DNA from: Psammoneis japonica
Lineage: Eukaryota
Assembly: GCA_008632985.1 (NCBI GenBank)
Contig: QPGO01000023.1
Location: forward strand, 341,266-405,265
Reading direction: 5' to 3'
Length of the DNA: 64,000 nt
A model generated the notes under the pieces. The model had not been told where the DNA came from. It was given only the letters and a program-made list of their open reading frames with translations, and searched no databases. This document shows, in pieces, positions 4,041-64,000 of the stretch (positions are counted from its first letter, which is position 1; every line of letters begins with the position of its first letter). The position numbers were made by a program, and so were the translations under genes.

Positions 4041-4371
4041 CAATCGGATGATTACAACAGCGTGTCGATGAGGGTCCAATGGAGCTTCTGTTGCAATGGT
4101 CCAAAAAACGACGAATTTTTGTACACCTTATCTGCCGCGTCAATGTCATCGTCGGCTGCGGCGGTTTTTTGTCAAGTTCTCCGTGTTGTCACCGCGGTGA
4201 TGGTCTGTACGCTCATCAGGAGCGATGCGGCACCTGCTCAACTCCCATCAGCAACCTTACCGATAGCTACTGTGGAGACTAGGGCCCTACAGTATTCTTT
4301 CTGGGCTTCTTCCCTCGGCATTCGATCTCTTTTTCTATCCGTTCTCTCCATTGAACCCCTTTGTCAGCGAC

Positions 4372-9614: not shown

Positions 9615-9789
9615 TGTCTGGGCCTTTGAGCACACTTTGTTTCCAACGTGGACGGACGCACCTCAGCGAGGTGATGCTTCGCAGGATAAGAGCTGCTGCA
9701 GCCCGAGACGCCGCCGCTCGAGCTCTTCATCGTCGGGCTAATATTTTTGAAAAAAAAAAGACGAAACTCCATCGGGTCTGTCATGTGTG

Positions 9790-14200: not shown

Positions 14201-14423
14201 CAATGTTGCAAGAGCTCGAGCGAACTAACTGCTGGCATGAGACGAGGCAAACTGAAACTAGCTACTACACTGGAGGTATACGTATTCCAGCTCTAACAGC
14301 GGTGGCCTCTAAGATTATTAGTTTCACACTGCAGCAGTTAAGGCCTCAAAACGCTTCCAAAATCACTGTCGTTGTGTCATAAGAGTACGAAAAGTATGGG
14401 CACCAACTCCACGTCGCGAACAT

Positions 14424-22013: not shown

Positions 22014-23786
22014 ATGATTCAACGTGTTTGGATCCGTTTTGCATCCTCGTTTCTTATATCGACGGCGTCTGCACTAAGTATGAGTGCCAACCGAGTGACT
22101 TATGATTTGGTGGTGATTGGTGGTGGGGCTGCGGGGTTAACAGCCGCAAAGTTCGCAGCAACTTTCAAAAAGAAAGTGGTGCTGATCGAAAAGGAAAAAC
22201 TGGGGGGAGACTGCACGTGGACGGGATGCGTACCGTCAAAGTCTTTGATTGCTAGTGCCAAGGCCGCCCATACAGCAAGAAATGCCAAAAAGTATGGCAT
22301 TACAACATCTAATGTCAAGGCGGACATGAAGGCTGTACGAGACCGATTGCGAGCAAACATTGACAAGATTTATCAAGAAGATGATTCGCCAGAAGCCATG
22401 GTAAGCCTAGGAATTGACACAATCATTGGTAATGCTGAATTCTCGTCGAAAGATACAGTTCGTGTGCAAGATCAAACCGGACGGGAAACCGTTGTCGAAG
22501 CTAAGCAGGGTATTGTCTTGGCGACTGGCGCCAAACCTCGGCGACCAACCGATACGATTCCTGGATTGGATTCCACAAACTATGTTACCTATGAAGAAAT
22601 TTTTGATTTGGATAAACTGCCCAAGACACTTACAGTAGTAGGTGGTGGTCCGGTAGGTGAAACGAAGGATGGTCCGAATGTAACAATGCGATGACAAATT
22701 TTCGTCACTCACCATGTTGCCTGACTTTGGATGCGTTTCCATAGATTGGTTGTGAACTAGCGCAATGCTTTGCTCGATTTGGGTCAAAAGTGACTCAAGT
22801 CGCAAACCGGTAAGAAGTCAAGGTTTTCAGTCGCTTCATTTTCATTTTGGTAGAGGCGACTTCTCTCACTCTAGATCTTGCCGTAGACTAGTTCCAAAAG
22901 AAGACATGGCCGTTAGTCGGATACTTGAAGAGGTCTTCGAGGACGAGGGAATAAAATTAGTACGGGGAAGTCTTACAGAGGTAGCTGCTGACGGAGAAGG
23001 CCACGTTGCCAAGTGCTCTCTTGAGGATGGCACATCGACAACCGTCAAAGGTGATTTGATGCTTGTGGCAGTGGGAAGAATACCCAATGTCAATGGAATG
23101 AGGTTGAAAGAAATTGGTATCAAGATTAACGACCGCGGCGGTATCTGTGTTGACAAAAAGCTGCAGACTAGCGTCGCCAAAGTCTATGCCGCGGGTGACT
23201 GCACAGGAGACAAACAGTTTACTCATTATGCCGGATATCAAGGTGCGATCGCTGCAAGAAACATTCTCCTTCCACTGAGCGACGCAGGGATCATGGAATG
23301 TGTACCAGCCGCGACTTTCACGAGTCCAGAGGTGGGTAAAATTTGGTTCGATCCGCCTTTTCCTCATCAATCTAATGCATCTTTTGATTTGTATTTGCCG
23401 TGCGCTAGATTGCTTCTGTAGGCTTGCTAGAAGACGCAGCAAAAGCGGAGTTTGGTGATGAGGCGGTACGAGTGTCTGTTACGCATCTTTCCGATGTGGA
23501 CAGAGCTGTATGTGATGGAGAAGAACGAGGTCTCCTTAAAATTGTGTATCTCAAGAAGAATTTGAGGATAGTCGGGGCAACAATAATGTGTCCGTCGGCT
23601 GGAGAAATGATATCCCAAATCAGTCTCGCCATGAAGGCAAGCTTAACCTTCGATCAGTTGGCGACAGTAATGCTGGCGTATCCAGCATACAGTGTTGCCG
23701 TGCAACTTATGGCAGCCGATGTTTACTACAAGAAGACTGTGAAAAGCAAGCCACTGTACGAGTTTTTGAAGCGGTTAGGACTGTAA
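22014..23786 (+). CDS. Class I pyridine nucleotide-disulfide oxidoreductase (mercuric reductase/dihydrolipoyl dehydrogenase-like), exons 22014-22652, 22745-22809, 22887-23331, 23409-23786
   Basis: GGGAAG FAD motif, GGDCTWTGCVPSK redox disulfide, GGGP|IGCELAQ, YAAGDC, FTSPE|IASVG; three frame-preserving GT-AG introns. Confidence 0.9.
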
Positions 23787-45429: not shown

Positions 45430-46458
45430 TCATGGATATGGACGACCAAGGAGCCTAAAGAAGCGATCGTTCTGCTCTGCTTGGCGTCTCCGTAAGAGAA
45501 GAGCCTGCAACTCCAACCGAGTAGCAACATCTCGATCACTTTGAAGCGAGAGCAACGGATGTGAACTGACTCCCCTTAGATCGTCAATTCTCCCCAATGC
45601 CTGCGTTTGCAGAGCTGTCGGTACCCCTACTGGTGCCTGAAGGAGAGCCGCGGCACGACGTCTCGCATCAATCTCCACCATCCTTAGAGCTTCGACTTCT
45701 TCAAGACGACGTCTCGCACTTCCAAGAAGTACAGAATCTGGAGTCTCGTAGTTTGACAACATTGGTCGACCCACCAAGTCACTATCAGTACGTATTGAGC
45801 TCGCTTGAAAAGGAAGTGAGAGCTGGAGAAGCCGGGGATCAGATTGAATAACGGGACCAAGAGTATGGCGACCAACGGTAGCGCTGTACGTGTTGCCGGG
45901 GTGCGGCACTGTAGACCTTTCCCTACCCTGATCCCTAGCTCCACTCATGCCATCGCATAGACTAGGATCATCCCTCACAAACAAACGATGGAAGAAGACA
46001 ATCTCGTTGGGATAAATGTCACTGACGGTTCTTTTGAAGCCCCATCGATTTAGTTTCCGAGTAAAGGATAAGTACTTGGACTCTTTGAAGTAGCGAGGAA
46101 GTGCCTCCTTTACGAGACGTTCCCGCGACATGATGACAAAAGAATCGCCATCGGGGAGCCATCTTATTATATGTTGAAAGTCTTTGTCCGCAAGAAGCTC
46201 GTGGAGCAGAATCGGAAACGTTTTTGGTAGATGGTGTTTCCGTTCAATTTTTGGCTTCTCCTTCTCTACTAGACTGTCTTGGTCGTCCTTTTCGTTTGTT
46301 TTCTTGGTATCTTCTTCTCGATAATCATTCATAGCAGAACCCTTGGTTTCAGTGATTTTCTCGTCAGACACCGCCCACTGATCAGAGCAAGATGATACAG
46401 GGCTACACATCACAACTCCTGCGGCTTTTTCGGCGTTGTTGCGAAAGCCGGAAGACAT
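45430..46458 (-). CDS. Heat-shock-factor-type DNA-binding domain protein
   Basis: TFPILLHELL..IIRWLPDGDSFVI..LPRYFKESKYLSFTRKLNRWGFKR..FFHRLFVRD; start uncertain. Confidence 0.88.
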   Translation of the reverse strand: MSSGFRNNAEKAAGVVMCSPVSSCSDQWAVSDEKITETKGSAMNDYREEDTKKTNEKDDQDSLVEKEKPKIERKHHLPKTFPILLHELLADKDFQHIIRWLPDGDSFVIMSRERLVKEALPRYFKESKYLSFTRKLNRWGFKRTVSDIYPNEIVFFHRLFVRDDPSLCDGMSGARDQGRERSTVPHPGNTYSATVGRHTLGPVIQSDPRLLQLSLPFQASSIRTDSDLVGRPMLSNYETPDSVLLGSARRRLEEVEALRMVEIDARRRAAALLQAPVGVPTALQTQALGRIDDLRGVSSHPLLSLQSDRDVATRLELQALLLRRRQAEQNDRFFRLLGRPYP

Positions 46459-46929
46459 GTGTGCTTTCCAAGTTGCTTCGAGAACAACAAAATCAACAGA
46501 CTTTTCTCCACTAAATTTTGGAATGTCGTTTTTGGATTTGTGGGAGGAGGAAAGCAAATGACGGCGAGGCGCAAATCACATGGTGGTCGCGGATATTTTG
46601 CAAGATTGAGATGGTGATGACGAGAGGGGTTTCGTGGTCGCGAGTCTTGGACACTAATTGCAATCCCGTTTTCTATCTTATTTATGGTGTGAGGACAGAA
46701 AAGCTTGTCCAAATGACTGGTTTGACAATAATTAAGGGAACCCGCTCGTATCGTTTATAATATGAAAGTACGGTACAGTACAGGATGATTCCCAAAACGT
46801 CCAACAGATGACCAAGACATCCTGTCAACAGCCCTATTTCTGAACTTGAATGTTGAAGTTAGAATTGAACTGGCGCGAATCAATCGTACGAAAAATGTTT
46901 GGCCGCTTTATCGGCTTGTATTTGTCTTG

Positions 46930-47150
46930 CTAGTAGAGAGTAGCTACTCTAGAGTAGCTATATACTCTAGTAGTAGTAGCTAGCTAGCTAGAGTAGTAGC
47001 TAGCTACTACAGTACTCTCTAGAGTAGAGAGTAGCTAGAGTAGCTACTACTACTAGCTAGTAGAGTAGTAGTCTCTCTCTACTCTAAGAGTAGCTCTAGT
47101 GAGTGAGTGGCTTCGCGGCGCTTCGCCACCTGGTCCTAGTAGTAGCTAGC
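46930..47150. repeat. TAG/CTA-rich low-complexity tract
   Basis: About 200 bp built from tagtag, tagctagc, agagtag and tactct units. Confidence 0.8.
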
Positions 47151-47287
47151 TTTTCTAATATACCGTGAGGAAGATGCCTCCGATTGCCCTTTGAACACAG
47201 AGGGAGTACCATAGTAACCAAGACACCAAGGGATTTAGCAACATTATTCAAAGATAACCCCCTGTCATTCTATAGTACTTAGCATTT

Positions 47288-48538
47288 TTAACGATGACCC
47301 CGTGACTGCCATGGTCTGAAGTGGTCCTCGGATTGACTTCTATCCGAAGGTGGTGGTTCCTGAGCGTCAGGATCAGACTGTCCGAGAAAGCTCAAAAAAT
47401 GGCTATCTGCTTCCATTTGATGCTGGCGTAGTAGTAGTGCTTGCGCATCAGCCTCCTCCAGCATGCGTTGCCTTTGTTGAAGCTGTGCAAAAACGGCAGC
47501 ATCAGTTGACAAGCCCGCATAGAGCCCTCCTAACAAAGTTGGATTTGTCAATGCCGGAGAGCGCAGTGGAGGCTGAAGTAATGCAAGGGCGCGCTGTCTT
47601 GCTTCCAGTTCAGCATTGAGAGACTGAACGCGTCGCATTCTGTCTGCTTCTTGCCCGGCGATGATTTCTCGTTCAAACAGGCGTCTGTCAAGTATTGGCG
47701 CTTGTGGCATCATCATGGCCTGTTGGGGAACTCGGAGGTGAGAGGGATGCGAAACACCACCAGCATGCGTCGCCGTTGGGAGGCCTGCAATGCCAGGAGC
47801 TTGTATTGGAACACCCCCTAGAGCTGTATCGGGGTTCTGCGAGCCGATAGACGGGGTTCGCTTTTTCGCTGCCTTCTTCGCCCCACTCATTTGCTTGCAT
47901 AGCTCTGGAGAGTCCCTCTTAAACAGAGGATTGTAGTATACCGTATCATCGGGGAAGACATTGGAAGAAATGCGTCGAAAACGCCATCTGTTCAACTTGC
48001 GAGTGAAGGATTCGAACTTACTCTCCTTGTAGTACTGCGGTAGCACTTCTTCCACGAACCGTATTCTTGATTTTATCGCGAAAGATTCTCCATCAGGCGC
48101 CCAACAAACAATGTCTTGAAAGCGTTTGTTGCGAAGAAGGTGGTGAAGTCTACCAGGGAAGTTGTTGGGCAAATCGATCTCCTTGTCTGTGCCTCCTTTC
48201 CTCTGCGTCTGCTCCTCGTCACCCTTTTCTTCCGACCTAGGTTCAGAAGCCCTGGCTCTTTCGGGAGGACTTACGCCTGAGCTGTGACTTGCTGATTTAG
48301 CTTCATCGTCAAAATGTGCCTTCTCTGAAAGCATTTCCCCAGACGAGCCCCATCCTGCAGCTACGCCAGGTAAATTCGAAATTGCCCGCCTGTACGACGC
48401 AGACACGTCCGATTCTCGGAAGGATGGCGAAACTCGGAGTCGCTTGTTCGGTCGGCTTTCATTGTCATCGTTCGATTCTGGCGACGAGTTCATATCAAAA
48501 CAACCCAGCCCAGTGTTTCTGCTCAGGGCCAATGCCAT
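47288..48538 (-). CDS. Heat-shock-factor-type DNA-binding domain protein (tandem paralog)
   Basis: NFPGRLHHLL..IVCWAPDGESFAI..LPQYYKESKFESFTRKLNRWRFRR..YYNPLFKRD. Confidence 0.88.
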   Translation of the reverse strand: MALALSRNTGLGCFDMNSSPESNDDNESRPNKRLRVSPSFRESDVSASYRRAISNLPGVAAGWGSSGEMLSEKAHFDDEAKSASHSSGVSPPERARASEPRSEEKGDEEQTQRKGGTDKEIDLPNNFPGRLHHLLRNKRFQDIVCWAPDGESFAIKSRIRFVEEVLPQYYKESKFESFTRKLNRWRFRRISSNVFPDDTVYYNPLFKRDSPELCKQMSGAKKAAKKRTPSIGSQNPDTALGGVPIQAPGIAGLPTATHAGGVSHPSHLRVPQQAMMMPQAPILDRRLFEREIIAGQEADRMRRVQSLNAELEARQRALALLQPPLRSPALTNPTLLGGLYAGLSTDAAVFAQLQQRQRMLEEADAQALLLRQHQMEADSHFLSFLGQSDPDAQEPPPSDRSQSEDHFRPWQSRGHR

Positions 48539-49189
48539 GGAGATTGGAAGGTTGTGCGTTTGTACTCTTTCTGTAGAGCTGAAGCAATGACTTTACCGGT
48601 CGTACGATGTGTCCGTCACATACACTGCGTCGCGTGTGGGCGGGGACAAAACAACTAAGATGAGGCAACGATAAATGTCGCACTCACGCGTGACCAAAAA
48701 ATAAAAAATTGGGAGACAGTTCTGTCCGTAAAAAGGGTAGTGCAACAGACAATTTTATTCGTCGTGAATCACGAATATAAATCGGTTGGGCCTTTTCATA
48801 CTTAGGAACAGAAAATTAACGTATGTTCGTATTATAAGGTTTATATGAAAAATTTCGGAGTAACCTATTTCATATCACTCTAAGTCCCGTTTTTTGCTTT
48901 ACTTAGGATATCGGAGAAATTGGACAAAATTGTGCACCTTAAATTTTATCAAGACTTGCTTATCGTTAAAAGTCGATTTCTATTTGACACACAACATCGC
49001 ACTCGTACGTTTTACGACTAGCGGCCTACGATCACGTGCTACGGTAGCACGGTACAGTGCTCCATGCACGACGACGTTGTGGTGTTCTTCGCTCGCTTCG
49101 CGATCGTCGGAAAAGTACGGAGAAGAAAAACGGAGTAATGATGACGTGAGCTGATATCTCCATAAGTAAACACGGAGAAGTCGGTGAAA

Positions 49190-49492
49190 TGCACATGCTG
49201 TTCGCAGTGTGTTGGGTGCTGTTGCTCAATTTCTGTGTTTTTTTCTGTGCCTGACATGACTGCAAATGTTTCAAACAAGGTTTTGCGTGAGGTGTGTCAT
49301 GCAGGCGCGCCCATGACTTGCTGGCAACACACTTGCCAAAGATGGCCCAAGCTCTTTCACACTGGCAGTGTTTTCTGCATCAAAAACAAAGCAAGCACAG
49401 CTTTCCTTGCTTGTCAGGATCATTTGCAACAATCAAGAAATTGACCCGATGTCTGCTTCAATCCATCCAAAAGTTTCAACCACAATGGCCCA
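49190..49492. mobile_element. Left part of an older TpA-depleted repeat interrupted by the copia insertion
   Basis: TA-free. Removing the element and one TSD copy joins ...FQPQWP to TCNAICDQ... in frame. Confidence 0.5.
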
Positions 49493-49737
49493 TGACAGGA
49501 TTTGAACAAGATTGTGGTTTGTCGCGCACAATTGTGTGTGCTCTCAGTTCCGCGCGCGTCGCGCGATGTGGCTTGCTTTCGAGCCACAGAGCTCACAAGA
49601 ATGATGACAGCAGTGCCGACATCACGACACCAGTCTTTCGGCTCCTGTGACGGTCTCTGCATGGAGACTCATCTGCCATTTAGACAGCAGTGAGGAGTCA
49701 TTGTTTTCTTCCACCCAGTCATCTTCATTTTCTGTCA
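49493..49737 (+). repeat. 5' LTR
   Basis: 245 bp, TG...CA with 6-bp inverted termini; 223/245 identical to 56102-56346 by manual alignment. Confidence 0.95.
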
Positions 49738-50549
49738 GATTGACAGTCTTGCTCTTCATTGTCCATTGAGCGTTCATCATCGTCATCGAGAAATTTTCGA
49801 CGACGCGCACCATTGGCAGTGGAAGCACACATCTACCTTCTTCACTGCTGAGCACTGGATTAAATCTGCATGTTTGGATTCATCCGACACCTCCCATCGT
49901 TGGAAGTGTTTGTTCAACGGACATTTGTTTGGCCAGGAACTCCTGAATTCTCAGACATCCGAGATTCTGGATTCCTTGCAGCGGATCCTGCCAACACATC
50001 CGCGCGCGTTCACGCGCACATGATGCAAATCCCTGACTCTGGCTCTGCTCCACGCACGCCAAGTCTACCGCCTCACATCTGCGCCGGATTGCTGGTCTTC
50101 TGCAGTCCTGCAGGGTCCACGAGGACAACTGTGAGAGGAAGCAATTCGTGATCACAGCCTGCGTTGGTGCGAGGGTGCATTTCCCACATTTGTTCATCCC
50201 TCCACAGCACCAAATTTGGCCAGTCTGATCGGGTTGTCCAACCGACATAAAATGAGATCGGCTCAGAGGTCTTGTCCACCTCTGGCTGGCTTGTCAGCAG
50301 GGGTTTTTAACCCGTTGCTCTGCTCTCAAGCAACCCAAAGTGTCGCCAGCTGCGGGTTCAGACGTGCCGGCACAACTCTGTGGACCGGATGGGAAGCTCA
50401 GCACTCAACTGCGAACAGGGTGTCACAGCCCGGTGCCTTCTGACTCTTGAGATAGTCCCAGACATCAAGTCAAGATTCAAGTCAAGTTTCAAGTCATTTC
50501 AAGCTCACCCTCCGACTCCAGCTGGTTCCGACATCCACCCAGTTGCAAC

Positions 50550-53500
50550 ATGGTTCTCACCAGGCAACAACAAATCAATGGCCTCGAGCACATCCTGGGC
50601 ACTGTTCTGAATCAAGCTGCCGACAGTCCATTGCGCTCCGCTCTCAACATTGATGGAACTGACTCGCATCAGGACCTTTTCACTTTTGCTCCGATGCAAT
50701 TGGATGCCCTTGTGTGCAACGACAGAACCAATCAAATGCCTTTGCCACGCTGCGTTGATCAGCCTGCACACAGCAAAAGCGCACGGCAGCACGGATGTTG
50801 GCAATGACCCTCAATTGTTCACACAAGAGGAGTTCACCAACTGTCGTCTTGGTCCTGAGCATGTGGCGTCCCTCTCCATGGGTGCAGCACCATCTGCTCC
50901 CACTCCTGGCTCATTGCCACCCAAACCATGTGATCCCGTGCATGACTTTAAACAAGGCATCAAACGTGACCCACTTGCCTTCATGCTTCTCAAGTCCAAC
51001 AAACAGTGGCACATGTGGCACACCTCCATCATCGCACAGGCCCACTCACAAGACATCGCACGCATTCTTGACCCGACGTACAAGCCCTCTGCAGCTGAGG
51101 ACAAGGCCCTGTTTGCTGAACAACAGAAGCACATGTTCGCTGCATTCAAACGGATTTTGCAGAATGACAAAGGCAAGGCTCTTGTTCGTCAACATGTCGG
51201 CTCCTCTGATGCTCAAGCAGTGTGTCATGACCTTTCCAAGCATGCCCTTGCTTCCACTCGCGCATCCCTGGAGTCCTCGACCCTTCTCACGTACCTCGCC
51301 ACTGCTCGCCTTGGTGATGGCACCTGGAAAGTTTCCACTCATGCCTTCATGCTCCACTGGCAGGACCAGCTCCGCAAGTGTGAAGCTCTCATTCCGGGTG
51401 CGGACCATTTTTCTGCTGGGCAGAAATGTGTCATGCTTGAGAATGCCGCACATCCCATCGAGGAACTCTGTTTGGTGAAGAATCAGGCCGATCAGTTCCG
51501 CGTGCAGAATGGAAAGGGACTCTCTTACAAAGAGCACTGTGGACTCCTGCTTTCTGCTGCAGCACAGTGCGACAGCACGTTCGCCCCCAAGATGGCTCCT
51601 TGCGCTCCGCGCCGTGCCATCTGTGAGCATGACCTGGTCCCTGACGACCCTGACGATGATGCATTCTTCGACATCGACAGTGATGTTGACGTCATGCAAG
51701 CTTGTGCTGCACAGACCCGCGGCAACTCCCTCACCAGGGAACAATGGTGTCGCATTCCGACGGACCACCAGTGCATTTGGGACACCTCACCCCAGTCCAC
51801 TGGGGCCATCATTCTTGGCTTGCGCACCGCCCACACGGGCAACTGCCATGACTCGATGGCAGTCAACCTGCATGACCTCCGCATTGGCAGTGATGGCGAT
51901 GTCAACTTGTCCGCCAACACTCATGATCTTGCATCAGCCTTGGCACAATCCGATGCTGCAGCCAGTGCCAACCCCATTCTGGCCCATCTCACCAGGCACA
52001 AGCCTCTGCCACCCGGCGACTTGCAACGTCTCCTGGCACCTGAGCGGCCTCCTTCCGCCCGTTCTGGCGAAAAACCACCCGGCTCTGCACCTTCGGTCCG
52101 CTCCGACATGAAGCCCCATGACACTGACATTGAGATCAACGGCCACAAATGCCGTTGCGTCAACAACCACAATGTCATCTGCTCTGCCTCGACCCACAAG
52201 TCAACTCGCAAAGGCGCTCTCGTGGATCGTGGTGCAAACGGTGGCATTGCTGGTGATGGTGTTTGTGTCATTGCCCGCACTGGTTGCCAGGTTGACGTCC
52301 AAGGCATCAACAATCATCAACCAGTCGACATCCCCATTGTCACTGCCGGTGGTGTCATCCACACGCAACGCGGCCCTGCCATTGCCATCCTTCACCAGCA
52401 CGCCTGCACTGGAAAGGGGAAGATGACACACTCTTGCAGCCAACTCGAGTGGTGCAAACACGATGTCAATGATCGGTCCATCAAGGTCCCCAACGGTCTG
52501 CAGTGCATCACCACCATTGATGGATGCGTCATTCCCATTGACACCAAAGCTGGCCTCCCATGCATCGCCATGCGCCCGCACACCGACACCGAATGGGACA
52601 CTCTGCCGCATGTCATTCTCACTGGTGATGACACATGGGATCCATCTGTCCTTGACCACCAGTTCACGGACAATGAGACGTGGCATGACGCCGTGTCTGA
52701 CCTCCAAGACAACCCGACTGCCAACCTCTTCGATGAGTTCGGCAACTGTCATCACCGCCATGTCATCAACAACGCCATGCTCACCGACTCCGTCCTTGAT
52801 GATCATCTGCTCCCGACGTCTGATTTCTTCTACAAATGCCATGAGCATGAAGTCAATCCCAAGGATCCTGACTTTGAGTCCCTCCGCCCCTGCTTTGGCT
52901 TTCTCCCAAAGGACACTGTCCGCCGCACTTTCAATTGCACGATGCAGTGCGCCCGCATGCCAGCCAGCACACACCTGAAAAAGGCACACAAATTGCCCAA
53001 CCCAGCTCTCAATGTCCACCAACACAATGAACCCGTTGCCACCGACACGGTCCACTCCGACACCCCTGCCATTGACTCTGGCTGCACCAGCGCTCAGCTC
53101 TTTGTCGGCATGGAATCTCTCATCACTGATGTGTGTGGCACCAAAACTGACAAAGAATTTGTCAACACCCTCGAAGACAACATTCGCAATTGCGGTGCCC
53201 CGTCCAAGCTCATCAGCGACCGTGCCCAGGTTGAGATCAGCAACAAGGTTCTTGGCATCCTTCGTGCCCTCTTCATCTCTAGTTGGCAAAGCAAGCCCCA
53301 TCACCAGCATCAGAATTTTGCTGAATGCCGCTGCCAAACTGTGAAGACCATGGCCAACACCATCATGGATCGCTTCGGGTCCCCGGCTTGCACCTGGCTG
53401 CTTGCCCTGATGCACATGTGTTTTGTGCTCAACCACACGGCGTCCGCCAAGCTCCACTGGCGCACCCCCACCGAGGTGCTGTCCGGCTCTGCTCCTGACA

Positions 53501-56114
53501 TCAGCCCGCTCCTCCACTTTCAATGGTGGGAACCCGTGTGCTGCCACCTGGATGATTCCGACTGGCCGTCAGAATCCTGTGAATTACGTGGTTGCTTCGC
53601 TGGCATCGCCGAACACGTTGGTCACCAAATGACGTTTAAGATTCTTTCTGACGACACTCAGAAGATTCTCCACTGTTCCAACGTGCACTCCGCCCGTGAT
53701 CCGTCTGCTCCAAACCTGCGTCTTGATCCTCCTGATGAGGAATCTGCTGACTCTGTCAATGAATCCCGCCACAACTCCAAGAATTCGCCAGATTCACCAG
53801 ATTGGGAGGCGATCAGGATGCCAAAATGCCGGTCTTTGACCCCAAGGACATCGTGGGACGCACATTCCTCATGAAGCCACAAGAGGATGGACAACGCCAC
53901 AGAGCCCGCATTGTCAAAGCTGTTGAGGACCACGACTGAACAATTGGAGGCAATCCTGAACTGGTCAAGTTCATTTGCTCCGTCAACAATGACGAACACG
54001 AGGAAGTCCCAGCCTGCAATGACATCATGCACCACATTGAGCAAGAAGACGAGGACACAACTCTCTGGAAGTTCCGACGCATCACATCCCACGAAGGACC
54101 ATTGCAACCCCATGATCCCTCTTGGAAAGGCTCAAGCTACAACATCATGCTTGAATGGGAGAATGGGGAGATCACGTCCGAACCCCTTGCCATCATTGCC
54201 AAGGACGACCCTGTCACCTGCACCATCTACACGCATGAGCATGGCCTTCTGGAAACCGAAGGATGGAGACGTTTTTGCAAGACAGCACTTCGTCAGAAGA
54301 AGTTGTTCCGCATGGCCAACCAAGCCAAGTTGCTCTCCTTTCGTGCCGCGCCATGATGCAAGTGCGGGCACGAAGCACCACGGAACTGCAAGCATGCCAT
54401 GGCCCTTGATGAGCGCAATGACAACCGCAAGTGGGGAGACGCCACGGACCTCAAGATGACCCAACTTGATGAGCACGAGGTCTTCCATGACTGCGGACAC
54501 CACAAGGACTCCAGTGCTCCATCAGGACACAAGAAGATCCGGGTGCATCTCGTCTGCGACGTCAAACATGACGGACGGCACAAAGCAAGGCTTGTCGCCG
54601 ATGGACACCTCACAGACGTGCCCATCGACAGTGTCTGCTCTGGAGTGGTGTCCCTCCGTGGCCTGCGAATGATGATCTTCCTGGCCGAACTCAATGAACT
54701 AGAGACCTGGGCCACTGACATTGGGAATGCCTGCCTTGAAGCTGCAACCAAGGAGAAACTGCACATCGCAGCAGGCCCCAAGTTTGGCAACCTGGAAGGA
54801 CGCATCCTCGTCATCCACAAGGCCTTGTGCGGACTCCGCAGCTCCGGTCTCAGATGGCATGAACGCTTTGCCGATTGCTTGCGTGCCGAAGGCTTCTTCC
54901 CATGCAAGGCCGAACCCGACATCTGGCTGCGCAGGAATGGTGACCACTGCGAATGCGTGGCAGTGTGTGTGGACGACCCAGCCTTTGCCATGAAGGACCC
55001 CCAGGTTTTTGCAGACACCCTCGTGGAGAAGTGCAAGTTCAAGCTCAAGGGCACTGGACCATTGGAGTTCCATCTTGGCTGCGACTTCACCCGTGACCCA
55101 GACGGCACCCTGTGCCTTGCTCCCCGCAAGCACATTGAGCGCATGGTTGACAACTGCGCACGCCTCTTTGGGGAGAAGCCCCGCACTGATGTGCTTTCAC
55201 CCCTTGACAAGGGTGACCACCCTGAACTCGACACCTCAGAATTGCTCAAACCAGATGGCATCCACCAACTCCAATCCTTGATTGGATCCCTGCAATGGGC
55301 CGCATCTCCAGGCCGCATTGACATCACTGCGGCTGTCATGTCCCTGTCCAGCTTCCGTGCAGCGCCCCGTCAAGGCCACCCAGACCGCGCCAAATGCATC
55401 TGCGGATTCCTCTCCAAGATGCATCATGGTGCCCTTCGAGTGCGCACCGAGGAGCCTGACCATTCAGACCTTCCCAAGCCCGTGTGCGATTGGGCTCAAT
55501 CTGTGTGTGGGGAGGTAGAAGAGCTTCTCCCACAAGATGCACCCGAGCCGCTCGGCAAGTTCGTCACCACCATGCACTGCGTCAATGCGAACTTGTTCCA
55601 TTGCATGCTCACTGGACGCTCTGTCACTGGCATCCTCCATTTCCTCAACAAGTTTCCGGCTGATTGGTTCTCTAAGAAACAAGCAACAGTCAAGACTGCT
55701 GCGCATGGATCCGATTTTGTTGCCGCAAGGACATGTGTCGAGCAGATCATTGATCTGCACATCACTTTGCATCACCTTGGCGTTCCCATTCGTGAAACAT
55801 GTCACATGTTTGGGGACAACAAGTCGGTTGTGGACAGTGCCACCATCCCGCACTCCAAGTTACACAAGCGACACACCACCCTCTCATTCCATCATGTGTG
55901 CGAGGCGATTGCCTCGGGATTCCTCAAGTTTCACTTTGTCGAAGGTTCCCGCAACCCGGCTGACATCCTCAGCAAGCATTGGGGTTGCTCCCAAATCTGG
56001 AACCTCCTTCGTCCTCCAATGTTTTGGAGCTTCAACCCCGAGGCTTTCAACCAATCCAACTTCGAATCTGTTGCTGTTGACCCCTCAAGCAAACTGGGGA
56101 GTGACAGGACTTGA
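50550..56114 (+). pseudogene. copia gag-pol pseudogene (gag, protease, integrase, RT, RNase H)
   Basis: gag MVLTRQQ...FKQGIKRD; protease ALVDRGANGGIAG; integrase VATDTVHSD, LISDRAQVE, QNFAE; RT HKARLVADG, TDIGNAC, KALCGL, CVDD; RNase H FGDNKSVV, NPADILSK. Several frameshifts and a TGA at 54354. Confidence 0.93.
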
Positions 56115-56346
56115 ACAAGATTTTGGCTCATCACACACAATTGTGTGTGCTCTTAGTTCCGCGTGCGTCAAGCGATGCAGTTTGCTTTCAAGCCACAGAG
56201 CTCACAAGAATGACAACAGCAGTGCCGACATCACGACACCAGTCTTTCGGCTCCTGCAACGGTCTCTGCATGGAGACTCATCTGCCATTTAGACAGCAGC
56301 AAGGAGTCATTGTTTTCTTTCACCCAGTCATCTTCATTTTCTGTCA
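56102..56346 (+). repeat. 3' LTR
   Basis: 245 bp, preceded by the PPT and followed by TSD GCCCA. Confidence 0.95.
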
Positions 56347-57976
56347 GCCCACGTGCAACGCCATCTGCGACCAAGCATGTGATCTTGAGTGGTTGTCAAG
56401 GAAGTGTCAAAATTTTGTGTGAGTTGTTGAGAAGCCACAAGCAGGTGGATTGCAGATCCTGTGACCACACACATCACAGCAGCTCCAACTGAGCTCAGAG
56501 CATGGCTTGAACAGCTGCTCACATTGTCTGGAAAGAGATGAGTGTTTTCAAGAAGCAGCCAGTGCTTCTAAAATCAAAGTCAAATTGTTTTGAAATGGTG
56601 CTGCCAGCGGCTGACAGGTGAAGTGACAATCATGGATCATGGCTGACATGAGCCTCTCATCTGGTGCAGATTGAACACTGTTCATCAAAAGGCAGCAGCC
56701 CAAGAAACACTGTCATCTGCCACATGGAAGAATGTCCAACATGAGCAACAGAAAAAGTTGACAAACACCAACCAGCAACATTGAAGCCCAAAACCAGGTT
56801 TTCATCCAGAGCTTGTTGTGTGCCGGTGGTGGCTCTCTCTGCAGTGCTCTGAACAGTGAAAATCCTTGCTGCTTCAGGCAAACAGCTTTGTCAAAGAGCA
56901 ATGTGTCAAAACAGCATGGGCCAAGAAGCTTTCAACAGCCAATTGCAGCTGGACACCACAAGCTCAAAGAGCTGGGCTGTGTGCACAGACAGATTTGTTG
57001 GCAGCGGCAACTTCCAAACCTTTTGGACCTTTCCAGTCATCAAAGCATGCATCTTGCACACTTGCAACTTGCAGAACGGCACTGAGAGTTTTGCAGCAGG
57101 TGGCAATGATGCCAAGAGTCCAGAGCACCAGACTGGCAAGCTGCAAGACTGCAATGAGTCCAATGAGCATGGGTCATGTGAATGGTGGAACATCGTTGCA
57201 AGCATCAGGAGTGTGTTGGAGCATCTGGAGCATGTGGGAAATGCAAGAAACCCAGAGGTCAAATTGTCAAAGAGAAAATGCTTTGACTGCCAATGTGGTG
57301 GATCTGGCGACACCTTGGAAATGAAAACACATTTGTTGCCAATCTCCTCGCTGACCTTCTTTTGTCTCACTCTTTGGAGTGAATCATCTGGTTTGCACAA
57401 ATTGTTGCATTGTGGCATCATCAGGTGCCTGTTGTGTCACAAAATTGAAGCTCATTGAGGACTTCCAGGGAAAACCACAACCACCACAAAAAAAGGACAA
57501 GTGTGAAGAGCAGCGCAAGAAACCTCTCAGAGGATTCCTTTTTGGCAACTTTGACTTGTTGGCTCAACAATCCGTCATCCAGCCATCTGGTGAACACGCA
57601 GTGCTGATGGAGCAGGGTTGTGCACAGTGTGTTTTTGTTGGCACATGCTCTGTTGGACAGCTTGCATTGCGGTGCTTTTCATTTGGCTTCATTTTGGACA
57701 TGGTGGCCTCTTTGTTCATGGCCTTCGAACAGTTGAGAAATCCTCCTTTTTGCCAACAATGATGGGAGAGGGAGAAACTTTTCTCTTGCTCTTGGCCACT
57801 TGTTGTCATCAAAATGGCAGGCAGTTGGGGCAGAAAACAAGCTGGAGCTCCTGTGTTGTGGCTGTTTGCTGCAAGGTGCCAGCACCGAGCTCCAATGTTT
57901 TGACAAAGTGTTTCATTCTCATCAACAATGATGACACAACTGCAGCATGCATGCAGACAAAAGGTTGTTTTGTCAC

Positions 57977-58373
57977 GCCCTTTGTGACATTTAAAGGCTG
58001 TGACACGTCGCCGTGACACATTGGCTCTTGTCAGCAGCTGTGTGTTGCACTCCTCCCCATGTGTCACGCGTCCATGCGGCTCTTTACTAACGTGCACTGA
58101 CACTGCACGGTTTTGGCGGAACAGTGTGGGTGCGTGCGAAGGAACACACAGAACTGCACAGAGTTTTGCGCGTTCGACAGTGATCAACGTTGCTGCAGAC
58201 AACTCCCACACAGGTTTCGAACCCCTGGCCTCCTGCCCAATGGTCATACGATGAACCACTCCGCCATGAATTCACAGTGCAGCACGCATGCAGACAAACG
58301 CCCTTTGTGACATTTAAAGGCTGCAACACGTCGCCGTGACACATTGACTCTCATCAGCAGCTGTGTGTTGCAC
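57977..58373. repeat. Direct repeat pair (about 74 bp; about 57977-58050 and 58300-58373)
   Basis: ccctttgtgacatttaaaggctg(tg/ca)acacgtcgccgtgacacattg(g/a)ctct(tg/ca)tcagcagctgtgtgttgcac. Confidence 0.85.
58203..58272 (-). mobile_element. tRNA-derived (Pol III A/B box) sequence; SINE head or tRNA pseudogene
   Basis: The minus strand reads TGGCGGAGTGGT (A box) ... GGGGTTCGAAACC (B box) at tRNA-like spacing; no convincing acceptor or anticodon stems. Confidence 0.6.
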
Positions 58374-60519
58374 AACAGCTGCAGCAACAAGAATGATGAC
58401 AACAACAGCGCACTGCTGCAACAGAGGAGCAGGCCAATGTTGGTGCCACTGGTGACCCAGCTCAAAGCAGTGTTGATGCACGTGGGGGATTGCAGAGCAG
58501 CAGCAGCAACGATGACAAAGAAAGTCAAGCATCAGAAACTGAGGCTCAAAATCCACAGCCATGGTGGATGCAGCAAAACAACATCATCTCAAATCAATTG
58601 GAAGAAAATGATGGGAACAACTTCAAGTTTTCTGGAATGTTGCATGAGCGTGTAAAAAATTGACCAGAGTCAAGCAATCAGAGAGGTCAGGAAAGGTTTC
58701 CTGCAATTGAGAGGAAAAGATTTCATGTGTCGGCATGACATGATGCCTGACACTGCAAAAGACATGCGGAAGTGGTTTTGCAAGTGCCATGTCTTCATGT
58801 GATGACTGGACATTGTGACACCAGGGTGGAAACCAAAACAAATGTCAGGGTGCAATGGGAAGAGCTGCGCTGGTGTCCACATCCAAGATTGCGACCCTTT
58901 GCTTGTGCACTCTGTGCCAAAAAATGCACTTTGAACTCACCAATTTAACGAATCTGCCATGGATGTAAAAACATCAACACACAAATGAGGCTGCTGGTGG
59001 TGTTCCTTGAGATTGGTGGTGACAGCACATGCTCAGCTCTCATCATCTGCAAGTGCTTGCTCAAGGGCTGGAGGCCAGCTTTCCTGGGGAGTTCTGTTTG
59101 TTCCCCTGCCACCTTGGCTGGAGAAGTGGAGCACAGACAAAATGGTCATGGAGTGGATGTTTGAATGCACTGATGGGGCTGTGAGCCCTTCTGCAGTTCA
59201 AGGTGTCGCTGAAATCCTTCAACGGCATCATCGTGCTTGTCACAAGCCGCCACAGTTTGACAAACAGTTTCTTAACTGCCAAAGCCAGCCTCTGTCTGCA
59301 GACAAGGATGCAAGCTGGGTGGCCTGGTGAACAAGGAAGAATCTCAAAGCATTCCCCATTTGCAACTCAGAAGACAGGTGTGGCCCCATGTTCCAGGTGA
59401 CAAGCTGCCAGCCAAAATGTGCTGCAAGAACACTGCTGTCAACTGCAGCCAAACAGATTCAATGTGCATGCACGACAGCTGCACTTGAATGAGATCACAT
59501 CTGTTGATTCATCACACAACAAGATGCTGAAGTGGCTGGCCAATTAGAAAGGACAGCAATTGCGTGAGCTGCTGATCACCACATGGAACAAGTGCTTTGA
59601 ATTGTTGATGGCCTTTTTTGCTCTGTGTCCAAAAACCATGTTGAGGTGCAAGCAGCATTTTTGCAGCTGGCATTGAAAGGCTTCAATCCCAATTTTGTTT
59701 TCTTGGATGTGCCATTGTGAGGTTGCAGGAAACAGCAGAGCCCCTGCACAACTGAGGTGTTTTCCAGCATTGCTGAGTCTTCAATCACTGCTGAAAACGG
59801 CAATCTTCCAGCTCTTGAGCTGCAAAGCAAGCCAGAGTGCCTTTCTGCAAGTGAGAGCACAATTGTGGCAATCAATGTCCTCAAAAATTCCATGCATGAA
59901 AGTGGCGCAACTCACACCACATCTCTCTTGAGACGCTGAGCATGGTGTCTTTGGTGATGACACAAGGGAGAAAACTTGCATCATCACACTTGGGTTGCTT
60001 GCTTGTCCAAACATCCTTGTGATTCATTTGAACAAAATGAAAGACAAACAAGAGATTGCGCTGCATTTGCAGAGACTTTTGTCTCAGGAAGACACCGCAT
60101 TTGTTGGCGGCAACATCAGAAATGACCTTGCCAAAGTGTGCTGTTGGCCGCTGAAGCACAACAAGTGCGCCTGAGCTCCCGATCCTCTTGAGCCCAAACC
60201 ACTGCACAGAGCAGCAGTCAACAGAACCAGCAACCAACTCAGATGAATTGCCACATCAATCATGCGAGATGAGCCACCTTGCCCCACATGAGTCACACCC
60301 GCACAAAAAGAATCCAACGGCAATGATGGCAACCATCAGACCATTGGCCACATTTCAGCATGCACAGTGTTTGTTGTTTCCATTGTTGCACAATCAAAAC
60401 CTGCAATTTGGGCTGTTCCCACCAGTGCCCATTGTTCGTGCCAAGAAACAACAAAAAATGGTGTGCCGGAAGTGTCGCTGACAGACATCCGAGATGGGGA
60501 GTGCACTCCCTTGTGTCAG

Positions 60520-63500
60520 ACAGACTGGCATGGACAGCACAGAGAGATCCGATGATCTCTCCTTTGCTCACTTTCTTTCTCATCTAGCACACGATTGTCA
60601 TCTGTCCCAGACATCCATTGGATTGTCCCAACACTGCCAGTCTGCAAGGTTGTGAGCAGCAGTGCACTGTTCCTCTTCCTCTGTGCTCCTCTGTTGCAAC
60701 GCCCACTGCGCGACTTGGCAATTTTTCTTTGTTGAAATTGTTGTCATTGTCACAGCTGTTTTTTTTGCCTCTCAATTTGTGATCGGATGATGACCACCAT
60801 AGAACACATGCCAGAGCTCTGCATGGGAATTTTGATTTTTTCCCGTGCAACCACAGTGAACAAAGCTGCAAATGCCATCGATTTGACCAAGATCAAGTCG
60901 GTGCGGGTTGAATTCTTCAAACTGCACAACCTCCCACCCGATGCCCATTGTCACCTGAATGCTCTGTGCTCTGACAAGATGCCTGTCCCTGAAGATCTTC
61001 TGGATGGATTTGCTTTTCAAGGACTCAAGAGCAATGCTGTCGCTGTTCCCCCCGTCACAAGATTGTTCAGAACCTTGTCATCCCTCAAGCTGTGCTTGCC
61101 AAAGATCTCACATGGATTGGACCGATCATTGAAAAGGCTCCTCTCTTTGTGACCACTCCCCAAGGCTCTCTGGTTCATCTGAACCTCAGCACTCTTCAGA
61201 AGACCATGATCAAAGCAATTTCTGAGAACTGGGATGCCATGATGATGTGTGTTGAGACCCTGCGTCTCCACATTTCTCCTGGTTTTCGACACTGTGATTG
61301 TTGGGACGATGTCTCTGATGTTCCGTGCCCAGACTTGCAGCCCACTTCAAGCCCTGCACCTCCATTGGCTGCTGCTCCAGGTGCTGCCCCTGAAGACTTT
61401 GCCAAGGCCTTGGCCACTCATCTGCCTGGTCCAAAACAATTTGAGCAAGCTGCGGCCAACGCGTTGAACACGTCTGCTCCTCCTGTGCCATCTCCCACAC
61501 CATCTGCCTTGACCACCACTGCTGCAGCTTCTTCCTCAACCACTGCCAGTGCCACACACACCTTCAATCCGAAAGGACTTCCCAAGGATGTGCTGGCTTG
61601 CTGTCAATGCAAGGAAGCCGGGAAGGCAGTGTCAGGGAAGTCACCAGTGCCCCACAAGTCTGGCAACCTGCATCATGAAGATGGTGCTGAGCGCCCAATC
61701 CTCACTGATGGTTCTCCATTTGTCCATTGCATTGATTGGGATGCCAAGTCCTTCCTTCATGATCCTCTCACTTGTGACGACATCTCTCCTCAAGGAATCC
61801 GTGCATGGCACACTGCTGCAACCCAACAGGCCTCCGCTTGTGGCACCCACATGCACCCTCTGTGGTGTTTTGTCAAGGACAGTGGAAACTGGGGTTTCAC
61901 CTGTGGCAATGATCCAACAGATGATCTCCCACTCTGGATGACAGCACCACTTGACAGAATGAAGTTGACTGTCTTCCAGCACATTCAGAAGGTTGGAATT
62001 TTTCTGGCGGACTCTGAGCACCCTGACATCATTCATCAATGCTGTGGAGATGGACATGCTGCCATCAAGATGATCTTCTTTGACATCTCACCAATTTGGA
62101 TGAAGCATCCACATGAGTTGATCAAGAGCCATCTGCACCAAAACAATCTTGCAATTCTTGGATGCTGTGCTCTGTTCAGAGACCACCTCCAGCTGCGGGC
62201 AATTGTCTCCAACGTTGATGCTTCTCTTGATGACCCTGGAGAGCCAGACATTTTTCTTGGCAATGCTTGCTGTGGAGAATGCCTTCACCGTAAAACAGTG
62301 GACGCCTGGGAAGACAAGAACAAGCAACACAAGTTCGCCCAGAAGAAGATTGTTGAAACCATCAGTGTGATTCTCAAGGAACAGGATGGCCCTGCTCTTT
62401 GTGTCAAGGATCCTCCCAAATGCCCTCCACATTGTCTCCATGACTCGCCCAACCCTTCTCTTGCAGCTCCTGTTCGAGGTCTTGACTTGCTTCCTGCAGA
62501 TGAGGTGTCTGCTCCACCTCCAGTTGTTGAGGAGACTCCAATCATGGAACCTGACCCTCCTGCTGCAGAAGAACCCATGGATGCCATGGAGCATTTTGTG
62601 AATGAACTTGGTGCTGTGGACATTCCTGCTGGATGATGAAGCACATGCACCACATGGCATCTGCAAGGCGCGCATCTACAGGACCAAGTTTTCACCTGCC
62701 ATTGCACAGACTCATCCGTGTGTGTTCCATGAGTGCCCTGCATTGAATGATGCTGAGCACCTGCACACCCACCCCACTTGGTTCTCCCAGTTTCTTCAAC
62801 GTGATCGGCATGCTCGCAATGCACTCAAGTCTGACATGGCCAAGAAGGATTTTTCCTGGGGCCATTGTTGCGTTCGGGCAAACAATGCCACCCATCTTCA
62901 TCCCATCCAAAACCTCATGCAAGTGGGGCAACTGTGAAAGAGGGTCCATCCGACTTGTTGCCTTCCACTGAAGCACCTCTTTCCCGTGTGTCATTGGGTG
63001 GGGAATTGCACAAGAATCCCAAAGTTTGTGACCTCTTTGAACAAGAATTCCAGCATGACATCTGTCCTTCTGGCGCTGGTGCATCCAGCCAATGTGGGCC
63101 TGTTGAACACTCACACTCAACTGTTGAGAACGCGATTCGTGCGATTTTAATTGGCGCCAACCTCCCGATTCGATTCTGGCCCTGTGCCTTTTGCCATTGC
63201 CTCCGCATCAAGAGTGCCACTCCTGTGAAAGATCAAGATGCAGCACCCATCACTCTTGCCACCAGAAAGGTCAAAGATTTTAGCACCCTGAAGACTTTTG
63301 GATGTCCAGCATGGTCCAAATGTTCCACTGCTTGTTCTGCTCCTTTCCGGACCAACTCGAAGAAAGGTGTCTTCCTTGGCCACCTCCCGAACACCCTGAA
63401 GAATGTCATGTGGAGGGATCCTGAGACTGACAAAGTCAAGACGGCCAAACATGTGCGCTGCAATGAAGGTGTGAATGATCTATTTTTTGGATCAACTTCC

Positions 63501-64000
63501 TCCAAATGCCATCCATTTGCAATGTGTGGAGAGAATGGTCAGCCTTTTCCGGCTGAAACACAGGACACAACTGTGCCCATGTTTGCTTCTTCATCAAATC
63601 CTTTTGCTGCGACCATTGCATGCACCATGAAACATCCTCACAGGGATCCTGCCTGTGGTTTTGGATTTTCCCAGTGCACCCTCATGGGCCGTGTCTGTGT
63701 TTCGGAAATCAAGCAGTGCAGTCCTGCGGCTTCCTTGTTCTCCTCTCTCCATGCTGCTTGCAACAAGATCATGGGTGCATGTGTCATCTTCATCAATGAG
63801 CGTGAAGTTTTTGCTCCACAGGATGCTGAGGAAGCCTCATCTCAGGTCTTCCATGTGACAAAATTCTGACCTTCGAGATTGCCTTTGCACCGGAACGACA
63901 TCTGGACTCCCGCACTCTCAACAAAGCATTTGAGGAAGCAGAGCTGTTTGAACCTGATTCCATGGAGGATGACTCTCACGCACCTGAACTTGCCTTGGAG
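60520..64000 (+). mobile_element. Second, different Ty1/copia element (gag-like region + integrase core/C-terminus), hypermutated, runs off the window end
   Basis: Integrase GASSQCGPVEHSHSTVENAIRAILIGANLPIRFWPCAFCHCLRI...LKTFGCPAW...SKKGVFLGHLPN...KHVRCNEG; Tyr-free 514-aa gag-like ORF at 61092-62636; PBS-like GGTTGTGAGC at 60648. The 5' boundary is tentative. Confidence 0.8.

Follow-up and report, generated by a model that had tools for sequence, protein, structure and literature searches.

Near-complete depletion of TpA in a Ty1/copia retrotransposon and neighbouring repeats within a 64-kb window from a probable diatom

Structure and base composition of the copia element

The 64-kb stretch of DNA analysed here and termed the window (contig QPGO01000023.1 of Psammoneis japonica, a probable diatom) contains, at positions 49493-56346, a complete Ty1/copia long terminal repeat (LTR) retrotransposon of 6854 bp, from which the dinucleotide TpA has almost disappeared. 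Features that define membership in the copia group are present, i.e., LTRs in combination with a target site duplication, a reverse transcriptase (RT) of the RVT_2 type and an integrase located upstream of the RT. The element resides on the plus strand and is framed by two identical copies of the pentanucleotide GCCCA (49488-49492 and 56347-56351), which were identified by inspection of the sequence and by alignment. The 5' LTR (49493-49737) and the 3' LTR (56102-56346) are each 245 bp long, begin with TG, end with CA and agree at 223 of 245 positions (91%). An initial annotation, made from the sequence alone, had described a full-length copia element inactivated by hypermutation. The LTRs, the target site duplication and both large open reading frames (ORFs) bear out the former part of this description, and the limits that had been assigned to the element are exactly its ends.

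The upstream ORF (50650-53874, plus strand, 1074 amino acids) encodes gag, protease and integrase. Its frame has stayed open and carries a heavy load of missense changes. At E ≤ 0.001 it finds 9224 homologues in a library of 1.84 billion proteins, while a Pfam search of this ORF returned no family at E ≤ 0.001, including no integrase match. The downstream ORF (54399-56114, plus strand, 571 amino acids) encodes RT and RNase H (Pfam RVT_2, E 4.8e-21); 1973 of 8000 scored candidate proteins match it at E ≤ 0.001, the best ones with 60-67% identity, and the sole named match listed is a protein from Cylindrotheca fusiformis (63% identity). In longer relatives, e.g., P0006, integrase and RT form one unbroken protein. 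When these are aligned to the window by tblastn, the N-terminal, integrase-side part covers 53119-53802 and the RT part 53808-56030, with a switch of frame near 53802-53823, which is the approximate site of a frameshift between the integrase and RT frames. The proposed hypermutation is not the sole lesion of the element, since this frameshift and decay of CpG are found there as well. The family has many copies, given that the summed depth of contigs with a similarity of at least 80% reaches 5,000-75,000 over the element, compared with 57 in the unique flank.

A total of 23 TA dinucleotides was counted in the 6854 bp, corresponding to an observed/expected ratio (o/e) of 0.07 and close to the two dozen first estimated by hand. 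Host-gene DNA of the window contains 39.7 TA per kb, and 62 intact metagenomic relatives of the element contain 50.2 per kb; approximately 270-340 TA would be expected in the element, and about 93% of these are gone, a degree of loss for which the earlier wording "near saturation" is adequate. A single TA remains in the 5' LTR, at 49681, and two are left in the 3' LTR, at 56154 and 56290. The dinucleotides TG (o/e 1.68) and CA (1.54) are in excess and CG stands at 0.68. AA, AT and TT show values of 1.03-1.08 (AA 1.03), and that of TC is 1.12. The loss is therefore specific to the TpA step, and A or T in general is unaffected. GC-biased gene conversion was rejected as a cause on the same grounds, because depletion is limited to TpA and does not extend to A/T overall.

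The depletion is mirrored by the amino acid composition of the encoded proteins. In agreement with the counts first given, the 571 residues of the RT/RNase H ORF do not include a single tyrosine and the 1074 residues of the gag-integrase ORF include four. Host ORFs of the window contain 2.4% Tyr and the 120 listed RT homologues 4.6% on average. Eight altered motifs were verified in place, namely CVDD (54966) instead of the catalytic YVDD, KALCGL, DIGNACL, AHGSDF, CHMFGDN, KHWGC, DDPAF and GHPDR. The consensus of 20 relatives at the motif sites reads YVDD, KALYGL, DIGNAYL, TATYGSEF, SYMFGDN, KHWGY and GHLER, so that Tyr or Leu stands where the element has changed. Stop codons of the types TAA and TAG are affected, too: six TAA and seven TAG are left on the plus strand and ten and eight, respectively, on the minus strand, compared with 139 and 181 TGA triplets. 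Because TAA and TAG vanish, the dead element displays long overlapping open frames, in several frames and on both strands. Stop-free stretches of at least 150 codons number 12 in 6.85 kb (1.75 per kb) vs. 0.84 per kb in genic DNA.

Direction and timing of the TpA loss

The direction of the change was deduced from conserved protein columns, defined for the RT by at least 70% agreement among 60 homologues. Tyrosine is conserved in 18 RT columns, where the element has Cys (10), His (6), Leu (1) or Phe (1) and in no case Tyr. The corresponding 15 columns of the gag-integrase ORF are occupied by Cys (8), His (3), Phe (2) and Tyr (2), such that 27 of the 33 conserved Tyr positions of both ORFs together have become Cys or His and two have been kept. 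Changes from Arg to Cys or His are likewise seen in the columns of both ORFs. All 108 differing conserved columns were then classed according to the single-base change that explains them, ambiguous cases being assigned preferentially to TA and CpG contexts. With this rule, 38 columns fall into the class TA to TG or TA to CA and 27 into the class CpG to TpG or CpG to CpA, while six are other A to G or T to C changes, one is another G to A or C to T change, 21 are transversions and 15 need more than one step. The tabulation by dinucleotide context hence reveals a clear bias toward TpA (38 changes in this context vs. 6 other A to G or T to C changes), and the direction, as read from the conserved columns, is from TA to TG or CA, that is, an A:T to G:C transition at TpA. 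Since Cys and His outcomes both occur, both strands have been targeted, and the initial annotation was right on both points. Ordinary CpG decay accompanies the loss of TpA as a separate process.

The two LTRs of a retrotransposon are identical at the moment of integration, which allows later changes to be recognized by comparing them. The 22 differing positions among 245 correspond to 17 events: five are adjacent double differences that set TG against CA, one is TA vs. CA, five are CpG transitions, four are other C/T differences and two are transversions. The five discordant sites lie at 49520, 49569, 49605, 49648 and 49691 and at their partners in the 3' LTR. In repeats that started out identical, such TG/CA doubles imply an ancestral TA that was struck on opposite strands, after integration and in DNA. 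TA was therefore present in the LTRs on arrival; the Tyr codons by implication were present as well and have been lost in place. Outside TA and CpG contexts, six events remain in 245 bp, i.e., about 1.2% per lineage; when this LTR divergence is set against the loss of about 93% of TA, indirect arithmetic yields a roughly 100-fold excess of TA loss over background per site.

All five discordant sites show the same arrangement, in which the 5' LTR carries TG and the 3' LTR carries CA. Such a pattern arises by chance with a probability of 1/16 and lacks significance; conceivably, it reflects a local preference for one strand in each copy.

Extent of the TA-poor DNA, sequence preference and related sequences

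The element is part of the largest of five TA-poor blocks (TA o/e 0.04-0.10) that a scan of the window delimited at approximately 251-2750, 3401-4100, 9751-14250, 15701-16550 and 49168-63950. All 36 TA-free gaps of at least 200 bp fall inside TA-poor, gene-free blocks. No host-type Pfam domain was found among 50 stop-free stretches of these blocks outside the copia element, the single hit being SH3_retrovirus, and the TA-normal DNA of the window carries ordinary eukaryotic host genes. The initial annotation had called the process repeat-targeted and restricted to repeats. This can be upheld in the form of a confinement to gene-free DNA derived from transposable elements (TEs), with sharp borders, within the 64-kb window. 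Among the blocks, CG o/e varies from 0.14 to 0.69, and TA loss is uniformly near complete. Older blocks have lost far more CpG (CG o/e 0.14) than the element (0.68) at an equal residual level of TA, which indicates that TA is lost by a process that outpaces CpG decay and runs independently of it.

On its left side the element is bordered by the end of an older CpG-poor repeat (49168-49487; no TA in 320 bp, CG o/e 0.42) and on its right side by an older repeat poor in both TA and CpG (56352-60900; TA o/e 0.01-0.05, CG o/e 0.16-0.35), for which a Pfam search gave no hit and which served as the target of the copia insertion. As the left flank resembles the right one, copia had entered an older, eroded repeat before it was eroded itself, and the process has hence acted more than once in the course of time. 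Further to the right (60993-63866, plus strand) follows a second element of the copia-like type, whose two ORFs comprise 547 and 344 amino acids (SH3_retrovirus, E 3.9e-8) and which may run off the window. It does not encode any Tyr in 891 residues and is unrelated to the first element, the gag-integrase ORF of which has no tblastn match in 60993-63866 at E 1e-3. Accordingly, at least two unrelated families have been struck.

A host gene for a transcription factor of the HSF type (47288-48538, minus strand; HSF_DNA-bind, E 1.3e-21) served as a control next to the element and has a normal TA content, with o/e values of 0.65-0.94 in the region 46001-49000. Its promoter (48539-49167) contains 45 TA in 629 bp and has a CG o/e of 1.65; the last TA lies at 49167, after which the sequence is devoid of TA for 320 bp. 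At 49167/49168, 14226/14259, 15683/15843 and 16510/16557, TA-normal DNA gives way to TA-free DNA within tens of bases. Borders as sharp as these point to targeting that depends on sequence and not on a spread of chromatin.

The sequence preference of the process was assessed by comparing the 71 TA that survive in TA-poor blocks with 1482 TA in host-gene DNA. Survival is highest for TTAA (0.47), followed by CTAA/TTAG (0.19), CTAG (0.13), GTAA/TTAC (0.10), CTAC/GTAG (0.06), ATAA/TTAT and ATAG/CTAT (0.03 each), GTAC (0.027) and ATAC/GTAT (0.014), and ATAT is extinct (0/102). An additive fit assigns cumulative hits per A of 2.43, 1.78, 1.02 and 0.55 to the 3' neighbours T, C, G and A, respectively (chi-square p 9e-15). 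Use of the 62 intact relatives as a baseline leaves the order T>C>G>A unchanged, and the same order recurs in the most strongly mutated of the environmental loci described in the following (L065). Judged from the sequences, the preference looks enzyme-like.

To our collection of related sequences a scan of metagenome contigs contributed 66 loci, which represent the best 80 of 396 relatives. The four loci with the lowest TA o/e of all 66 are L065 (0.27), L062 (0.31), L050 (0.33) and L052 (0.35), and these have Cys or His in 15 of 18, 7 of 17, 6 of 20 and 2 of 20 conserved Tyr columns, respectively, i.e., they show a graded replacement of Tyr. In the other 62 of the 66 loci, TA o/e is 0.46-1.07 and no conserved Tyr column has turned into Cys or His. 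The four signature-bearing contigs span three naming series, one of them in the style of a short-read assembler (NODE_..._cov). Among the 120 listed RT homologues, P0022 (0.9% Tyr) and P0073 (2.3% Tyr) resemble further cases, and a scan of viral contigs for relatives did not find any. The occurrence of a graded signature in four environmental relatives argues that the TA depletion is not an assembly artefact.

Contigs built from the public run X1 were compared with stretches listed as TA-free. They are identical to the assembly at 47000-49556 and 57375-57966 and differ from it once at 56317-57224, which speaks, if weakly, against an assembly artefact; the four environmental relatives carry more weight in this respect. 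X1 was the one run listed as containing the element, with no RNA run among the matches listed. When 31-mers were sampled from the element, a fraction of 0.53 was present in X1, where the interior of the element is covered only by many short, diverged contigs. Differences among contigs of the family comprise C to T at 492 places, G to A at 415, T to C at 324 and A to G at 246, and each type of transversion occurs at 18-44 places. Of 1752 places with contig differences 40 were classed; they include ten transversions, six changes from TG to CG and a few that are related to TA, and no conclusion was drawn from them beyond the general excess of transitions.

Several further features of the window deserve mention. 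The TA-poor region 251-4100 consists, according to the TA scan, of the blocks 251-2750 and 3401-4100; between these nearly TA-free blocks, the segment 2683-3544 has an intermediate TA content (about 9 per kb), perhaps as a result of partial mutation or of a mixed origin. The block 9751-14250 (TA o/e 0.04, CG o/e 0.14, no Pfam hit) is situated between host genes and has sharp edges, while that at 15701-16550 is short (TA o/e 0.09). Self-comparison of the window by blastn detected only the LTR pair and one repeat of 110 nt. The older TA-poor repeat contains a direct repeat of 76 nt (57975-58050 and 58298-58373; identity 93%), and TTTAAA, which represents the resistant context, has been kept in both copies. 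Two genes for DNA-binding proteins of the HSF type, 45433-46458 and 47288-48538, both on the minus strand, are arranged in tandem beside the repeat island. A pyridine nucleotide-disulphide oxidoreductase is split between two ORFs at 22014-22691 and 22765-23418 (plus strand), 73 bp apart, each of which encodes one half; a single gene interrupted by a short intron is the simplest explanation. As for the host, the leading named matches of a DUF1989 protein are Skeletonema marinoi (77% identity) and further diatoms (68-70%), with two haptophytes at 71-73%, which makes a diatom probable; a search with a P-type ATPase yielded no named match.

Candidate processes and comparison with known systems

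With a probability that we would put at roughly 80%, the observations reflect a host process that acts on chromosomal DNA after integration, is confined to TEs and converts TpA almost completely into TpG or CpA. On this account, the copia element would have been normal, TA-containing and presumably active at the time of its integration. The host process would then have converted nearly every TpA to either TpG or CpA, on either strand, far more quickly than background mutation or CpG decay proceed. It would be limited to transposon-derived DNA, halt abruptly at the host promoter and prefer T-A-T, followed by T-A-C, T-A-G and T-A-A. Such a process would be bound to destroy all codons for Tyr, along with many of those for Leu, Val and Ile, and to remove TAA and TAG stops. 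It probably serves genome defence, and its targeting may be guided by homology, small RNA or chromatin marks.

A number of points weigh against this account or reduce the force of the evidence for it. Run X1 may derive from the very sample that was used for the assembly, its library type is unrecorded, and as independent support it is weak. The contexts of TA in host genes or in relatives stand in for the ancestral sequence in the analysis of sequence preference, and L062, L050 and L052, which are partly mutated, reproduce the order of contexts only in part. TpA is self-complementary, so the same data can be read as T to C changes in [A>G>C>T]-T-A, and the attacked base is indistinguishable from sequence. 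TG and CA outcomes are intermixed, with runs-test z values of +2.3 for copia and of -0.9 to +0.9 for six other TA-poor segments, and this test gave no sign of the long, processive single-strand bursts that repeat-induced point mutation (RIP) or APOBEC enzymes leave behind. Finally, with a contig depth of 57-222, some portions of the TA-free flanks occur at present in a single copy or in few copies, the summed contig depth at 56542-57275 being 105-222 vs. 57 in unique DNA.

With regard to the agent, a polynucleotide adenine deaminase of the TadA/ADAT type that works on DNA and generates inosine, which is read as G, is the preferred candidate, to which we would give a little less than even odds among the possible mechanisms. 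The tRNA A34 deaminases always act beside U33, and the strict need for a 5' T fits a deaminase for this reason. The main rival to an adenine deaminase is a modification of thymine. In this scenario, which we regard as unlikely, a dioxygenase of the TET/JBP type marks the T in R-T-A of silenced transposons, yielding 5-hydroxymethyluracil (5hmU) or a further modified base, and mispairing with G or misrepair results in T to C changes. Owing to the palindromic nature of TpA, a T to C change in [A>G>C>T]-T-A describes the context data equally well, and according to the consulted passages of a study on dinoflagellates, 5hmU made by TET/JBP homologues marks and silences TEs there and is preferentially formed from T in TA and TC (PMC11572971). 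TC, on the other hand, is undepleted in the copia element, and that 5hmU is mutagenic enough to bring about saturating T to C change is an assumption.

Error-prone repair is considerably less probable. Here, deamination of 5-methylcytosine (5mC) or other lesions in methylated transposons would recruit mismatch or long-patch repair, in the course of which a Pol-eta-like polymerase misinserts G opposite T at WA. Pol eta is known for a hotspot of A:T mutation at WA in somatic hypermutation, and CpG decay as the potential trigger is present in the element (CG o/e 0.68, 27 conserved columns, 5 of 17 LTR events). Yet AA, which is part of WA, is undepleted (o/e 1.03), and the conserved columns contain only six A to G or T to C changes outside TA as opposed to 38 in TA context. 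In addition, TA loss is saturated in a young element with mild loss of CpG, and older blocks, with CG o/e at 0.14, have an equal TA level.

An artefact in the form of miscalls caused by modified bases, or else a native avoidance of TA, due for example to selection against UpA in RNA, is highly improbable. Modified bases can give rise to motif-specific consensus errors in some long-read assemblies, and the library type of X1 is, as stated, unrecorded. A systematic miscall would not, however, yield different outcomes (TG vs. CA) from the same context in the two LTRs, X1 k-mer contigs reproduce TA-free stretches with no or one difference, and the signature is shared by four environmental contigs. 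Native composition is contradicted by the 62 of 66 relatives with normal Tyr and TA o/e of 0.46-1.07, and an active element cannot have been selected for lacking the catalytic Tyr of its YVDD motif.

Hyperediting of transposon double-stranded RNA (dsRNA) by an ADAR-like enzyme before integration, fixed by reverse transcription, is rejected and can practically be dismissed in spite of the preference of ADARs for a 5' U and for repeat-derived dsRNA, as available parts of the source put it (10.64898/2026.01.13.699255), because the TG vs. CA discordance at five LTR sites cannot predate integration, sense T to C changes are common (9 His vs. 18 Cys in the window, 19 His vs. 11 Cys in the four partly mutated loci) although sense RNA alone is reverse-transcribed, and non-coding, non-copia flanks are equally TA-free.

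The properties of the host process proposed here have several practical implications. The preference for T-A-Y, the sparing of TTAA and the sharp borders narrow the search for the agent; if this is an adenine deaminase, it would constitute a natural A-to-G editor of DNA. Through the removal of stops, dead elements would be mistaken for genes by gene callers, and protein databases come to list their products as Tyr-free proteins that look intact, P0022 being an example. Public protein and metagenome collections already contain partly Tyr-depleted copia RTs, and the signature could be mined at scale. TA-free blocks with an excess of CA and TG might serve as a screen for this kind of defence in any genome.

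Among known systems, those based on deamination of cytosine at CpG or on animal deaminases share individual traits with the process described here. Deamination of 5mC at CpG acts on the same element and also yields TpG and CpA, but it cannot convert TpA, differs in extent among the blocks (CG o/e 0.14-0.69) and is a separate, slower process. APOBEC and ADAR enzymes acting on animal retroelements resemble it in that a deaminase-driven, context-specific hypermutation becomes fixed in genomes, as outlined in the consulted parts of PMC4866542. In contrast, APOBECs convert C to U, seen as G to A, on one strand during reverse transcription, and ADARs act on RNA; both precede integration and leave identical LTRs, while the LTRs studied here differ and A:T to G:C changes affect both strands. 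The dinoflagellate 5hmU, too, is a DNA-level mark of transposons with a preference for T in TA in an alga of the SAR group (stramenopiles, alveolates and rhizarians). It is an epigenetic mark that also favours TC, which is untouched in the present case, and erosion of TpA is not reported in the passages of that article that were consulted (PMC11572971).

Fungal RIP comes closer. It likewise acts on DNA after integration, causes dinucleotide-specific transitions, leaves transposons riddled with missense changes, is confined to repeats and has fairly sharp edges. Its direction is the opposite: RIP converts CpA to TpA and enriches TpA, according to the consulted part of the RIPCAL publication (PMC2621366), whereas TpA is erased and CpA and TpG are gained in the window; moreover, RIP creates stop codons and the process here removes them. 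RIP depends, in addition, on duplicated sequence, a premeiotic stage and a methyltransferase of the RID type. The process in the window resembles RIP in mirror image. RIP itself was thus rejected, as C:G to T:A change at CpA with enrichment of TpA is the reverse of what was observed, and the statement of the initial annotation that the change runs opposite to fungal RIP and is not explained by 5mC deamination is correct.

The initial annotation had also stated that a described pathway of this kind was not known from diatoms. Full-text literature searches, supplements excluded, indeed found no report of TpA-erasing hypermutation in a diatom. A paper on diatom retrotransposons (PMC2806351) has no matches for the terms RIP, dinucleotide, hypermutation or deamination, and its matches for "transitions" and "mutation" are unrelated; in the consulted parts of a paper on diatom DNA methyltransferases, RIP is mentioned solely as a fungal process (PMC9998398). 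A parallel has, however, been described in the chlorarachniophyte Bigelowiella natans, for which the available parts of a recent preprint report A to G and T to C hypermutation of integrated viral DNA at TpA only (Mettrop et al., bioRxiv 2026; 10.64898/2026.01.13.699255). As these parts further state, a single-copy giant-virus region and a virophage region mutate about 1000-fold faster than the rest of the genome in mutation-accumulation lines, the hypermutation operates in a subset of the lines, reverse transcriptase and DDE domains are overrepresented among TpA-poor coding sequences, and the authors propose an adenine deaminase of the ADAT2 type. Both cases share several properties, as far as the preprint's consulted parts go. 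Changes are near-exclusively A to G and T to C, restricted to TpA and give TpG or CpA depending on the strand; they are local to foreign or selfish DNA and spare host genes, a statement that for our case applies to the 64-kb window; and they leave TpA depletion with a gain of CpA and TpG as a long-term trace.

The two cases also differ. The host of the former is a rhizarian, that of the latter probably a diatom and hence a stramenopile. The viral targets in B. natans are about 1.8-fold depleted of TpA according to the same parts of the preprint, whereas LTR retrotransposons and older repeats have lost about 93-98% here. Rates were measured directly there and inferred from LTR divergence here (about 100-fold). 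The main target in B. natans is single-copy, which bears on the label "repeat-targeted" of the initial annotation. The order T>C>G>A of the 3' neighbour was found in the present study, and the preprint has no matches for "trinucleotide", "context" or diatoms (10.64898/2026.01.13.699255).

The kind of process is therefore already known from one preprint, and what is new concerns retrotransposons as targets, saturation, a preference for flanking bases, sharp borders and another lineage, probably the diatoms. In our literature searches, nothing on TpA-erasing hypermutation turned up that preceded this preprint of 2026. The same signature is now seen in a second major algal lineage, which probably are the diatoms, i.e., key primary producers; the process may occur widely among SAR algae, where it could influence both repeat landscapes and base composition. 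A tentative extension of this comparison, for which the odds are clearly below even, is that stramenopiles and rhizarians share an old defence in the form of a sequence-guided nuclear adenine deaminase, derived from a tRNA-A34 deaminase, that would turn T-A-Y into T-G-Y on either strand, in transposons as well as in integrated viruses. It is possible to the same limited degree that borders would be sharp to the base pair and elements killed soon after insertion. If true, such a shared deaminase defence would represent nature's equivalent of the adenine base editors used in the laboratory, and it would mirror fungal RIP.

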